From positions 96,544-160,543 of the forward strand of contig JABISG010000147.1 of the NCBI GenBank assembly GCA_018699955.1: 64,000 nt of DNA, given 5' to 3'. This document shows, one piece after another, positions 1 to 44,816 of this stretch (position 1 is the stretch's first letter; each line of letters opens with the position of its first letter). The position numbers and the translations under genes were made by a program. The notes under the pieces are model-generated. The model saw nothing but the letters and a program-made list of their open reading frames with translations, had not been told where the DNA came from and searched no databases. This DNA comes from Planctomycetaceae bacterium (lineage in GTDB: Bacteria > Planctomycetota > Planctomycetia > Planctomycetales > Planctomycetaceae).

Positions 1-187
1 AAGAAGGCGCGCTGATTGCACCGGTTGGCGAGTGAGAATCCCTTGGGGTGCCGCGGGTGGCTTGTCCACCCGTGCCGAAACGTGGACGGCATACAATCTG
101 CTTCGGCGACGCATTCCATTTGAACACGGCAAAGACGTCCGCACTGGCGGACAAGCCGACCAGTGGCACCCGGCGCAGGTCCGGCTC

Positions 188-228
188 AAACCTGACGGCT
201 TGCGTGTTCCACTTTCTTACGACATCCA
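188..228. repeat. ~40-bp dispersed repeat, copy 1 (aacctgacggcttgcgtg...ctttctta), second copy at 1966-2004
   Basis: Direct comparison of the two segments: 18/18 identical core, about 85% identity over about 40 bp; the copies flank the 531-1949 gene. Confidence 0.5.
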
Positions 229-355
229 AAATGCCGCCAACTGCACTCAACACGCATCATCAGATTTTCACGATCAATCCACCGGACCAAACAAACGCAG
301 GCAGACGAAAACACCTCACCACACTCAACACCATGATCCAAAGTGAAACACTCTG

Positions 356-397
356 GAACAAAAACAAACAGATCACTTGACTCTCAAGACAGTCGCT
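356..397. repeat. 42-47-bp dispersed repeat, copy 1 (gaacaaaaacaaacagatcacttgactctcaagacagtcgct), second copy at 44817-44858
   Basis: About 42/47 identical positions with the segment at 44817-44858; contains a short inverted repeat cttga-N3-tcaag; intergenic in both places. Confidence 0.55.
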
Positions 398-530
398 TCC
401 GGGCTATACTCGCGGGTGGGGGAGCGTTGTCATAATGGTGACCGCTCCGAACCTGGAACCGATCCAGGCTCAAGCCATCTGGGAAATATCGGTCAGGGCC
501 ACTCTGTGTGATTTTTAGTAGAGGTAATCC

Positions 531-2004: not shown

Positions 2005-2032
2005 GGACGCTCCCATTGGCCATCATTGCCTG

Positions 2033-2136
2033 GAGGTGGTTTCAAAACCCGGATTTTATCGTAGCCACGCTCGCCAGAGCGTGGATTCGTCGAGCGGTGC
2101 CACCGTCTGGCGACGGTGGCTACGGTTTTGAAACCA
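2033..2136. other. 104-nt nested inverted-repeat element: perfect 15-bp outer stem enclosing two perfect hairpins (7 bp and 9 bp); candidate structured RNA or MITE-like element
   Basis: 2033-2047 ggtggtttcaaaacc pairs perfectly with 2122-2136 ggttttgaaaccacc. Inner hairpins are 2063-2082 (ccacgct/agcgtgg) and 2097-2118 (gccaccgtc/gacggtggc). The element is non-coding. Confidence 0.45.
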
Positions 2137-2164
2137 CCAGCAATGCAGTCGCTCGTAGGATACA

Positions 2165-2200
2165 AGGTCAGGCTGAAGCCTGACGTCTTTCGGCGTTGTT
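2165..2200 (+). terminator. putative intrinsic terminator (gtcaggc-tgaa-gcctgac followed by a U-rich tract)
   Basis: 7-bp stem, 4-nt loop, then gtctttcggcgttgttatttg; lies in the 3' region of the 531-1949 gene. Confidence 0.35.
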
Positions 2201-2405
2201 ATTTGTCATGCGGCAAACACGCCGGCAGTGTTTGGAGCCGGGGCGTTCGGATGTGACAGCGAAGTGGCATGCGTTTGCCGTCAGGCTTTAGTCTGACCTG
2301 CCTTTACTGGACCGCCGTCGCGGTTTGAGTAGAATGTCCCTTGCGTCGCACATTGCGATGCGGCCGTGATTTCAGCGGCAACGTTTCATTTCCCCGCACG
2401 CGAGA

Positions 2406-3410
2406 ATGCCCATGTCGGTTGTAGCGGTTTGTCCCAAATGCGATGCGAAGTATACGCTGAAGGATGCGGCTGTGGGGCGGAAGATGAAATGCCGACAATG
2501 CGAGAAACCGTTCCGCGTGACAGCCGCCATCGACGAATTCGACACTGGATCGGACGACGAATTTGACCGACCGGCTCGATCCCGATCCAAGCAGAAACGG
2601 CAGAAGAAGGCACCCCTTGGCGAGGGGGAGGTTCGCGTCACCTGTGGCGATTGCTCGGCACGCTTTGAGGTGGCAATTCGCCAGAAAGCTTACGAAACAC
2701 GCTGTATCGTCTGCGATCAGCCGGTCCCTGTTCCCGGCCAAGGTGGAAGTGGAAAATCGTCTGCCAAGAAGTCCGGTAAACGAAAAAAGTCGCGGAAGAT
2801 GCCGAAATTCCTCATCCCGCTCGCCATCGGAGTGGCGGTCATCGGTGTTGTTGTTGGCTTGGCGTTTCTGCTGCCGAACACGGGTCCCGGTGAAAGTGGA
2901 ATCAAGGCGCCTGCTGCGTATGAGGTCTACGCAGATAACCGCGGGAATCAATTCCACGTGGAGTACCCGGACGGGTGGAAGATTGAGGCCGGGGCGCGGG
3001 GGACTTCCAATCCGTGGGCCAGGTTTAAGAAGGGATCGGCAACGATCCGCGTGAAGACGAGTATGGGGGCGAGCGCAATGGGAGACATCATGGGAATGGG
3101 CGGCGACGACGAAGACACGCCAGACGAATTGACGGCGGTCGCCCAGGTCCACACCTTCATGAAGAAGCAGTACGCCGATGAATACAGCGACTACGAGGAA
3201 CAACCAGCGAAAATGATAAAGACGGGCATGGGTGACGGACAACTTTCGGAGTTCACCGCAGCCGGCGGCTGGGGTTCAAAGACCAAGGGAGTCCGGCTGA
3301 CCTGTCTGGCGACCAATTATCAGTTCACTGTCCTGTGTGATTGCTCAGAGTCTGATTGGGCTGCTTGCAAGCCGATATTCGAACGGGTTGCCAAGAGCCT
3401 GTCGCACTGA
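2406..3410 (+). CDS. zinc-ribbon domain (MJ0042-type, two copies) single-pass membrane protein
   Basis: Two CxxC...CxxC ribbons (CPKCDAKY..CRQCEKPF and CGDCSARF..CIVCDQPV), a Lys-rich linker, one TM helix (IPLAIGVAVIGVVVGLAFLL), then a C-terminal extracytoplasmic domain. Confidence 0.6.
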   Translation: MPMSVVAVCPKCDAKYTLKDAAVGRKMKCRQCEKPFRVTAAIDEFDTGSDDEFDRPARSRSKQKRQKKAPLGEGEVRVTCGDCSARFEVAIRQKAYETRCIVCDQPVPVPGQGGSGKSSAKKSGKRKKSRKMPKFLIPLAIGVAVIGVVVGLAFLLPNTGPGESGIKAPAAYEVYADNRGNQFHVEYPDGWKIEAGARGTSNPWARFKKGSATIRVKTSMGASAMGDIMGMGGDDEDTPDELTAVAQVHTFMKKQYADEYSDYEEQPAKMIKTGMGDGQLSEFTAAGGWGSKTKGVRLTCLATNYQFTVLCDCSESDWAACKPIFERVAKSLSH

Positions 3411-3425
3411 GGTGCGTCAATCTGG

Positions 3426-4196
3426 GTGTCCCGGACCTACGTCACTTCGTTCCTGTTTCGGCAAGGCTTGACTCGCCCCAACCGCCACCCGGCGGAAGGT
3501 TGCAAGGATGCATTAAGAATGGCCGGTCCAAACTCGCAACTCTATCTTCAGTGTTGGCTTGCTGTGTCGATTGGCGCCTGGCTTTGGGTGACCGGATGCG
3601 GCCATTGGTTGTGTCGAGTGATTGCTCAAAGCAAAATGTCGACACAACCGAAACGGCGATTTCGACAATGGGTTGCTCGGTACCAGCGACTTCCTGAAAT
3701 TGCGATCTCAGGAATTCGGACTGCGCCGATTTGCTTCGTTCAGTTTCTCAGAAGACTCAACCGTACTTCACAGGCATTTCTGGCAGGTGTTGTTGTTTAT
3801 TGTTTGTACGATGTCCTGTTTTCCGAGTACTGGTACAACTCAGACGTCTATCTGGATGTGTTCTGGTGGGGAGCTGGACGCGTGGATGTCACAGGGTTCG
3901 CCCTTCAGGGACATCTCTGGTGCATTGGCTGGGGTTATGCACCGGAGATACTTCTCGCATGTGTGAGTGGCCTTGCAATAGGATATTTGAAACCGAAACG
4001 CCGGTTGAGAATCACGGCATCTTTTGCACTGGGGTTATTGTTGTGTTCGGTGCTTGGGGATTTGCTCTACATGCCTTTTGATTTTCAACCGCAATTGATT
4101 TTCTACCGAATCGTCTGGTGTCCGGTTCTCTTTGTCTTCGTGTACTCCGCTGCACTGCTGCAACGGATTTCCACGCGCCCATTTAGCCGCCGGTGA
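3426..4196 (+). CDS. hypothetical polytopic membrane protein (Trp/Cys-rich)
   Basis: ORF with several predicted TM segments and no recognisable domain; the true start is probably internal. Coding status is uncertain. Confidence 0.3.
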   Translation: MSRTYVTSFLFRQGLTRPNRHPAEGCKDALRMAGPNSQLYLQCWLAVSIGAWLWVTGCGHWLCRVIAQSKMSTQPKRRFRQWVARYQRLPEIAISGIRTAPICFVQFLRRLNRTSQAFLAGVVVYCLYDVLFSEYWYNSDVYLDVFWWGAGRVDVTGFALQGHLWCIGWGYAPEILLACVSGLAIGYLKPKRRLRITASFALGLLLCSVLGDLLYMPFDFQPQLIFYRIVWCPVLFVFVYSAALLQRISTRPFSRR

Positions 4197-25672: not shown

Positions 25673-25682
25673 CGCAACGACC

Positions 25683-25716
25683 AGAAACCCGGTTTCTCCG
25701 AAGAAACCGGGTTTCT
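25683..25716. terminator. bidirectional terminator-like perfect hairpin (agaaacccggtttct-ccga-agaaaccgggtttct) between convergent phoD and the ALDH gene; repeat family also at 29994-30026
   Basis: 15-bp perfect stem; each arm is itself palindromic; lies between the stops of convergent genes. Confidence 0.55.
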
Positions 25717-25721
25717 GTCGA

Positions 25722-29993: not shown

Positions 29994-30026
29994 AGAAACC
30001 CGGTTTTTCCAAAAAACCGGGTTTCT
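29994..30026. terminator. terminator-like inverted repeat (agaaacccggttttt-cc-aaaaaaccgggtttct), same family as 25683-25716
   Basis: Lies 12 bp after the stop of the DUF1338 gene and is followed by T-rich sequence. Confidence 0.5.
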
Positions 30027-44478: not shown

Positions 44479-44799
44479 CCGAGGGTGTGAACCCTCGGGT
44501 TTTCCGAAGCACCAGCCGGTTCACACCGGCCGCTCGCCGCCCTAATGTTGTACGCGGGTCTCCCGATCCCGCACGCAGCTAGACCGCAGGTCTTCTGTGA
44601 GTTCGGTGAGACCTACGGTCGCGACCTTGGGTCTTTCCCGCGCAGGCGGGAATCCAGCGAGCCAGCAAAAAACGCAAAACTACCATCGACACACCCACGT
44701 CACCCCAACACGCGCCGCACGGTCGTCCGCGAACCGACTGGATTCCCGCCTGCGCGGGAATGACGATTACTGGTTCCCAAGCTCCAGCTTGGGAACCAG
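44479..44799. repeat. non-coding hairpin-rich cluster: terminator-like stem-loop with U tract (44479-44503), a pair of perfect 21-bp inverted repeats (44635-44655 / 44740-44760), and a perfect 14-bp-stem hairpin (44770-44799)
   Basis: All complementarities checked base by base; no credible ORF in this interval. Confidence 0.5.
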
Positions 44800-44816
44800 G
44801 AAAACGAGACCCTTTA

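Follow-up and report, generated by a model that had tools for sequence, protein, structure and literature searches.

The 64-kb window analysed here (64,000 nucleotides of contig JABISG010000147.1 from a Planctomycetaceae bacterium, whose numbering is used wherever no other locus is named) contains, between a lipoprotein-like gene and a zinc-ribbon gene, a nested stem-loop that is very probably one fixed copy (2033-2140), with degenerate ends, of a composite and non-autonomous mobile element in which a TA-inserting shell of terminal inverted repeats (TIRs) encloses a doublet of repetitive extragenic palindromic (REP) units. The initial annotation had offered three readings of this stem-loop, namely a small structured RNA, a protein-binding cruciform site or a miniature inverted-repeat mobile element; the last of these is favoured by extra copies with unrelated flanks, sharp termini and a filled/empty insertion site with a TA duplication, and the structured RNA finds no support. 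That annotation had not seen that a TIR shell surrounds a REP doublet, making the element a composite, nor that the ends of this copy are degenerate. Transposable elements of the miniature inverted-repeat type (MITEs) and REPs, or their hairpin-forming doublets (REPINs), are each already known kinds of repeat. The family described below occurs in multiple copies with defined ends and TA flanks, and displays a filled and an empty version of one site, modularity of shell and cargo, and covariation in its hairpins.

Movement of the composite as one unit is seen on comparing loci from other contigs and genomes (designated here by L numbers). L008, L116 and L143 each contain a copy whose identity to window 2029-2138 is 92-95% and extends over arms, linker, REP units and spacer; the flanks of these copies are unrelated, with similarity ending at the TA. 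A 408-aa pyrroloquinoline quinone (PQQ) beta-propeller gene ends just upstream of the L116 copy, and its orthologues were gathered. Ten contigs from a related population (L217-L226) encoding an identical PQQ protein have the filled site, which reads TGA, 17 nt, TA, the 109-nt element, TA and then GTGGGAG..., whereas the site is empty in L209, L210 and L211, where the stop codon of a 94%-identical orthologue is followed by 17 nt, a single TA and CCCGAGAATCGG..., after which the alignment resumes. These three loci keep the same downstream methyltransferase and peptidase genes as the filled contigs. L209 derives from the metagenome-assembled genome (MAG) GCA_018703065.1, to which L001, a 99.95% match to the window, also belongs, and L210 and L211 come from two sister MAGs of the MAG of the window organism. 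More distant PQQ orthologues (86% and 81% identity) likewise lack the element after the gene. Filled minus empty is the 109-nt composite plus one TA and, since the filled contigs have a TA on both sides and the window MAG and its sisters a single TA, the composite inserts as a unit with duplication of the TA. No empty site was present among the loci first fetched; those described were found through the orthologues of the flanking gene instead. The additional copies and target-site duplications by which the initial annotation had proposed to recognise a mobile element were both found, the former at other loci and the latter at the filled/empty site.

Direct reading and an inverted-repeat search place the nested palindrome at 2035-2138, offset by 2 nt from the span first annotated. 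Of the three perfect helices described there, the 15-bp and 9-bp stems were confirmed, and the third, given as 7 bp, is actually 8 bp long. The outer stem (2035-2049/2124-2138) comprises 15 bp at 100% complementarity (GGTGGTTTCAAAACC / GGTTTTGAAACCACC), hairpin 1 (2065-2072/2077-2084) has 8 perfect bp (CCACGCTC-GCCA-GAGCGTGG) and hairpin 2 (2099-2107/2112-2120) has 9 bp, again 100% complementary. RNA folding of 2033-2136 gave a minimum free energy (MFE) of -58 kcal/mol (z = -6.4; 0/200 shuffles as stable), and folding of 2027-2146 with DNA parameters gave -38.1 kcal/mol (z = -7.4). The DNA-parameter centroid is exactly the three-helix arrangement first annotated, whereas the RNA MFE fold is one long imperfect hairpin of -63.8 kcal/mol, versus -56.3 for that arrangement; hairpins 1 and 2 are mutually 84% complementary over 25 nt. 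With an 11-nt seed, seven inverted-repeat pairs were found in the window, and the element is the sole perfect one with widely spaced arms.

Read from left to right, the element begins with a plus-strand TIR, the left arm of the shell (GAGGTGGTTTCAAAACC, 2033-2049), which fits the consensus GARSYGGTTTCAAAACC of 69 genome matches and pairs perfectly with 2124-2138. An 11-nt linker (CGGATTTTATC, 2050-2060, plus strand) separates it from the cargo, and the right side is without a linker. REP unit 1 (2061-2084, plus strand) consists of a GTAG tag and the 8-bp hairpin with its GCCA loop (GTAGCCACGCTCGCCAGAGCGTGG), and is followed by a 15-nt spacer (2085-2099) and by the inverted REP unit 2 (2100-2123), whose minus strand reads GTAGCCACCGTCGCCAGACGGTGG. 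Direct reading shows a compensated GC/CG swap between unit 2 (CCACCGTC/GACGGTGG) and unit 1 (CCACGCTC/GAGCGTGG), which keeps each local hairpin perfect and weakens the pairing of one unit with the other (local 100% vs 84%). The minus-strand right TIR (GGTTTTGAAACCACCAG, 2124-2140) completes the element. In the closest copies (L008, L116, L143) the left flank is TA and the right flank is TA followed by G; TA is the family consensus on both sides and the presumed target-site duplication. Against these nearest relatives the window copy departs at the left TA (TG, 2031-2032), at the right TA (CA, 2141-2142) and at base 2139, the last but one of the right arm, which is its one mismatch to the aligned subfamily consensus ...CCACCTS; its interior is intact. 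These are exactly the positions that would matter for movement by a TA-duplicating transposase, and the seven contigs of the locus that could be read all have the identical sequence here; we conclude that the window copy is old, fixed and probably immobile.

The outer arms belong to a TIR shell that is found across phyla. An exact-match scan of one genome per species for GGTTTCAAAACC-N50-80-GGTTTTGAAACC returned 69 loci, against a chance expectation that we roughly estimate at ~0.1, and their consensus is TA|GARSYGGTTTCAAAACC, with 17-nt TIRs. Each searched 12-nt arm is itself nearly palindromic (GGTTT-NN-AAACC). The matches lie mostly in Planctomycetota, with others in Desulfobacterales, Gemmatimonadales and a Sandaracinaceae MAG and less clean ones in Acidobacteriota; a single genome contains as many as five copies (five each in, for example, CAVXNL01 and JBGQHN01). 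The 8 nt outside the searched 12-mers, which the scan did not demand, are conserved as yTAGARSY on both sides, and position-specific counts over the 69 copies reach background composition from -9 outward. T stands at -7 in 45/69 copies and A at -6 in 54/69, and 40/68 copies have a flanking TA on the left and 36/68 on the right. The two arms agree with each other above their marginals only at -1 to -3, with no agreement beyond -8, a pattern that reflects subfamily variants of the TIR. Three matches (L044, L074, L075) are without conserved flanks and look like chance. Element sizes are 108-115 nt of entirely palindromic sequence with no coding capacity, and no empty shell (arms without cargo) was present in the fetched loci. 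When stop-to-stop open frames of at least 150 codons were taken as a proxy for genes, 52/70 shell copies were not spanned by an open frame and 18/70 were, the latter plausibly an artefact of high GC content; divergent flanking frames were rare (4/39). Targeting of stop codons was considered and is not claimed: in 13/68 elements a frame of 150 codons or more ends on the terminal TAG, which amounts to 9.6% of ends versus 6.2% of all TAGs in those loci (p = 0.08).

By its sequence, the interior has the anatomy of GTAG-tagged REPs and of REP doublets. A GTAG stands at one end of a short palindrome in both 2061-2084 (plus strand) and 2100-2123 (minus strand), and the two units form an inverted doublet that can fold into a longer hairpin, as in a REPIN. 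The general form of this interior is GTAGCCACGYTCGCCAGARCGTGG, a spacer and then the reverse complement ending in CTAC. The exact 24-mer of unit 1 occurs in at least 120 metagenome loci, nearly all of those listed being without the GGTTTCAAAACC arms, and the family is abundant across metagenomes, with one doublet in the 64-kb window. Among the listed loci there are 87 inverted doublets, with unconserved spacers of 4-62 nt, as well as singlets, and outside the doublets only a weak pyrimidine preference just before GTAG is conserved. A census of 221 units yielded 38 distinct variants, of which that of unit 2 is the fourth commonest (13 occurrences). Across the 38 distinct units, 94% of stem cells are paired versus 80.6% in shuffles, five of the eight pairs have changes on both sides, and the covariation score of 0.415 (0.154 in shuffles) was reached by 0/500 shuffles and collapses in slid controls. 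The contigs of the window locus itself (L001-L007), being identical over the element, gave no covariation information. GTAG REPs have been reported in Planctomycetes, among others, in association with REP-associated tyrosine transposases (RAYTs) (PMC3733652).

Shells and cargos are exchangeable. The GGTTTCAAAACC shell has at least seven unrelated palindromic interiors among its 69 copies, and interior families A, B, C and F have the same asymmetric layout of arm, 8-13-nt linker, palindromic cargo and arm without linker. Conversely, the GTAGCCACG REP doublet also occurs naked or in two other TA-flanked inverted-repeat shells, so that the same doublet is found in three different shells in all. 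The second shell (TA|GCCCGGATTATTCAT..., 132 nt) encloses this doublet in seven occurrences (L082, L113, L114, L124, L144, L147, L157), and the third (TA|GTGCTTTGTCA..., ~127-135 nt; L148, L163, L170, L175, L186) encloses it as well and holds other palindromic cargos in L148 and L186. We tentatively suggest, as a generalization that seems possible yet somewhat short of probable, that the TA-inserting miniature transposons of Planctomycetota and neighbouring phyla are modular, in that a cross-phylum TIR shell (TA|GARSYGGTTTCAAAACC, plus at least two others) may repeatedly carry lineage-specific REP/REPIN-type doublets, nesting two selfish-DNA systems, one moved by a DDE transposase and the other linked to a tyrosine transposase. 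If this were true, REP doublets would hitch-hike on shells between loci and perhaps genomes or, alternatively, shells would recruit doublets as strong fold-back brings their two ends together.

Several further arrangements were noted among the shells and their cargos. The 10-11-nt linkers of window 2050-2060, L116, L008, L070 and L024 (GGATTTTATC, GGTTTTCATC, GGTTCTTGAG, GGATTTTGAT) resemble the opposite arm over its first 10 nt (GGTTTTGAAA), which gives the cargo the look of being flanked by a short duplication, and no such likeness is seen in L036, L048 and L039; a target duplication made by the cargo was considered as the origin of the 11-nt linker and is not adopted, the likeness being present in some copies and missing in others. 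Units of type GTCCGGCTGAAGCCGGAC are the cargo of acidobacterial shell copies (L011, L045, L050, L067) and are similar to the hairpins at window 2165-2299. A palindromic repeat (GGGTGCCACTGCTGGCTAGCCCAGCAGTGCC) directly follows the stop codon of the PQQ-gene orthologue in L213-L216 (~3735-3775), and in L032 a 130-nt shell element (1309-1438) carries a related unit as its cargo. In L071 (1955-3024) a 228-aa lipoprotein-like ORF (open reading frame; 2143-2829) lies between two GGTTTCAAAACC shell elements (1955-2056 and 2922-3024) in a composite-like arrangement. The ORFs between neighbouring arms in L053, L031 and L071 were considered as transposases and are ordinary genes.

Our data suggest the following mechanism. 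The 17-nt arms (consensus GARSYGGTTTCAAAACC) would be the ends recognised by a transposase, and insertion takes place at TA, preferentially at YTAR/CTAG, with duplication of the TA. The shell would be moved in trans by a DDE transposase of the IS630/Tc1-mariner type, and the cargo is an inverted, GTAG-tagged, REPIN-like doublet of a REP family that is mostly free-standing in planctomycete-type metagenomes and was presumably generated by RAYT-type tyrosine transposases. The window copy would now be immobile through its mutated flanking TAs and one terminal base. A stabilising effect of the hairpin on the upstream transcript is possible and, like any other effect on neighbouring genes, would be incidental. 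TA duplication by IS630-family transposases is documented for ISY100, for which TA target duplication together with TIRs of ~17-24 bp, the hallmarks of IS630/Tc1-mariner elements, has been shown biochemically (PMC2170065). Because no autonomous element was found in the sequences searched, it is the TA duplication by itself that points to this family here.

A number of observations weigh against this reading. Neither 1.4 Mb of fetched loci nor viral contigs and plasmids yielded an autonomous element, in which these TIRs would enclose a transposase gene, and some IS5-family subgroups (IS5/IS427-type) also give 2-bp TA duplications and are another option for the transposase. No transposase or RAYT domain (Pfam) was detected in the 20 smaller window ORFs scanned, and the window has a single copy of the element in 64 kb. 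At the PQQ locus the junction flanks have diverged, and the placement of the insertion rests on the equal distance from the stop codon and the resumed alignment, not on identical flanks. The acidobacterial shell copies have poorly conserved termini, many of the source genomes are MAGs, such that some phylum assignments of copies could reflect binning errors, and the reading offers no reason for shells to carry REP doublets. As to the searches themselves, neither TIR pairs 0.2-4 kb apart nor TA-flanked 18-nt inverted repeats 0.7-1.9 kb apart yielded anything relevant in the fetched loci, the viral-contig scan for the shell gave two chance matches inside apparent phage structural-protein coding sequence, and BLAST of the joined arms against plasmids gave chance matches only. 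Searches of the window with the arms or hairpins revealed no further copies beyond chance.

Like the MITEs of IS630/Tc1-mariner elements (with ISY100 as the model; PMC2170065), the family is short (~109 nt), non-coding and multi-copy, has 17-19-nt TIRs and TA flanks, and has an empty orthologous site with a single TA. Unlike them, it has no cognate full-length insertion sequence with the shell TIRs in the loci searched, the interior in the window is a REP doublet and not the remnant of a transposase gene, and one TIR shell is combined, in several phyla, with many palindromic interiors that are unrelated to one another. The window family shares with Correia/NEMIS elements of Neisseria and other fold-back MITEs a size of ~100-150 nt, TIRs, TA duplication, long hairpins and a gene-adjacent position. 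Correia elements are known from one genus only and their sequences are unrelated to the shell, whereas the shell occurs in several phyla with lineage-specific interiors. Correia/NEMIS elements are listed as MITEs in the literature (PMC3733652). With GTAG-tagged REPs and REPINs associated with RAYTs (Bertels & Rainey, PMC3116915; Di Nocera et al., PMC3733652) the window interior has in common the 5' GTAG tag, the GC-rich hairpin, the inverted pair and the variable spacer, and hairpins of this type are kept by compensatory changes in a family abundant in planctomycete-type DNA. It differs from them in that the window doublet is enclosed in a TA-flanked TIR shell and moved with it, in that the doublet is single in 64 kb with no RAYT in the ORFs scanned, and in that target duplications are not reported for REPINs. 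No description of the shell TIR family, its cross-phylum spread or the recurrent nesting of REP doublets in TA-flanked shells was found in the open-access literature, and a literature search with the arm and hairpin sequences returned unrelated primers only.

The least improbable of the rival readings is a REPIN moved by a RAYT (a Y1/HUH tyrosine transposase), in which case the GGTTTCAAAACC arms would be a pre-existing palindromic target or host hairpin entered at its centre. The GTAG tag, hairpin and inverted-doublet form of the interior are those expected of a REPIN (PMC3733652), and the cargo touches one arm and lies 8-13 nt from the other, which resembles a one-sided insertion. We nevertheless regard this explanation as improbable, as the filled/empty difference is the whole composite including its arms, with TA on both sides, and the 92-95%-identical copies include arms and linker. 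No empty shell was seen in the fetched loci; nor was a REP-flanked RAYT-type ORF found in the metagenome loci fetched, or a RAYT among the window ORFs scanned. Y1 transposases are not known to make target duplications.

Less probable still is that the element functions as a structured RNA, be it a small RNA or a 3'-untranslated-region/5'-leader element acting on the lipoprotein or zinc-ribbon gene. In favour of this are the very stable fold, its position 83 nt past the end of a gene, at which a hairpin could shield the transcript, and a weak resemblance to the Rfam family Acido-Lenti-1 (RF01687; E = 0.028). However, the Rfam check proposed in the initial annotation, run on the whole window at the gathering threshold and on 1850-2450 at a permissive E-value, gave nothing above threshold in either scan, and membership of Acido-Lenti-1, the best sub-threshold match, was rejected at 20.3 bits versus the 37 required. 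The element is absent upstream of the zinc-ribbon orthologues and polymorphic for presence, its copies are found among unrelated genes and in unrelated arrangements, the stem is not followed by a U-tract, and the 17-nt arms are conserved across phyla as sequence and not merely as pairing, which suits recognition by protein at the DNA level better than RNA pairing. Acido-Lenti-1 shares with the window a hairpin followed by GGCUA(C), and it is the minus strand of hairpin 1 (window 2053-2084) that resembles it. A bona fide match in L030 (6111-6156, 48.3 bits) is likewise a hairpin followed by GGCTAC. Since a hairpin plus GGCUAC is a GTAG-tagged REP on the opposite strand, the family may describe REP-type repeats rather than a small RNA.

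Least likely of all is a host protein-binding cruciform, nucleoid-organising site or transcription terminator kept for that role: the element is a palindrome of palindromes with near-palindromic arms, and enterobacterial REPs bind gyrase and IHF and stabilise mRNA, but the locus is not conserved across relatives, no terminator-type T run is present, and termini that decay here and are kept in family copies elsewhere fit a dead transposon end better. Two more specific identities were rejected. An intrinsic (Rho-independent) terminator does not fit a stem followed by ACCAGCAATGCAG without a T run, and a terminator scan was negative at the element. In an integron attC site the ends ...TTTCAAAACC and GGTTTTGAAA... 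would have to match R'' (RYYYAAC) and R' (GTTRRRY), and they fit neither; the 17-nt arms are also conserved far beyond 7 nt.

At the window locus the element begins 83 nt past the stop codon (1949) of the lipoprotein-like ORF (472 aa, 531-1949) and ends ~265 nt before the zinc-ribbon ORF (2406/2412-3410). The 472-aa protein is encoded on nine public contigs, seven of which (L001-L007) could be read; they comprise marine metagenome contigs and the MAGs GCA_018703065.1 and GCA_018664515.1 and are 100% identical to the window over the covered parts of 1900-2450. L007 ends at window 2140, and L005 leaves the window inside the right arm (L005 1630-1660, ~window 2134), reading GGTTTTGAAAC|TGCTTCTAC and then unrelated DNA. 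The alternative right end in L005 is well formed (GGTTTTGAAACTGCTTCTAC) and stems either from recombination with another copy or from a chimera made at a repeat during assembly. Upstream of 338, L002 and L003 no longer follow the window, and taken together the behaviour of these four contigs hints that the element is repeated and that strains differ in the arrangement of its neighbourhood. Upstream of the lipoprotein-like gene (window 1-530) there is a 746-aa same-strand ORF in L001 and an opposite-strand protein kinase in L002 and L003; because the upstream gene differs between closely related assemblies, the lipoprotein gene lies at a strain-variable junction.

Orthologues of the zinc-ribbon gene (82%, 68%, 56% and 53% identity) share upstream homology only from ~2342-2400, beginning in the 82%-identical relative only at ~2342, and a promoter-like site (2308-2335) lies within or beside this conserved stretch. 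The region from 1950 to ~2300 is made up of lineage-specific palindromic repeats, namely a dispersed repeat (1955-2010), the element and an inverted pair of GGTCAGGCTGAAGCCTGACG hairpins (2165-2299). The gtcag..ctgac hairpins and the dispersed-repeat copy that the initial annotation had noted nearby are real. Two direct copies of the latter, a ~55-nt repeat consisting of a hairpin GGTC.G...CTGAC followed by GGCTTGCGTG.TC.ACTTTCTTA.G.CATCC, flank the lipoprotein-like gene (178-235 and 1955-2010), and L002 and L003 carry only the downstream copy. The pair at 2165-2299 consists of inverted 21-nt hairpin units (AGGTCAGGCTGAAGCCTGACG / CGTCAGGCTTTAGTCTGACCT) 93 nt apart and stops a few bases short of a TACTGGA motif (2306-2312), which is common to the upstream sequence of L199, conservation detected by BLAST starting at ~2342. 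Elsewhere in the window, another REPIN-like doublet (44631-44764) has GTCTTTCCCGCGCAGGCGGGAATCCAG arms that are 96% complementary across an 80-nt spacer, a type also seen in L054 and L161; after it comes a 17-bp hairpin (TTACTGGTTCCCAAGCT/AGCTTGGGAACCAGGAA, 44767-44802) that is found again in L143 (3773-3804). Perfect 15-16-bp hairpins built on AGAAACCCGGTTTCT (25682-25717 and 29994-30026) stand at gene ends, one of them between convergent ORFs, and look like bidirectional terminators.

What had been a candidate regulatory RNA at this locus is now read as decaying selfish DNA, one among several intergenic palindromic repeats, located upstream of the next gene's conserved promoter region. Such elements break metagenome assemblies: of the seven contigs of the locus, L007 ends at the element and L005 diverges within it. 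They are also markers of insertion polymorphisms and of rearrangements between strains among uncultured marine Planctomycetes. More generally, one 17-nt transposon end is common to several phyla, with its interior swapped for local REP-type palindromes. If this holds up, these elements would provide a system for asking how REP/REPIN families spread, how MITEs gain fold-back interiors and whether two transposition machineries cooperate.

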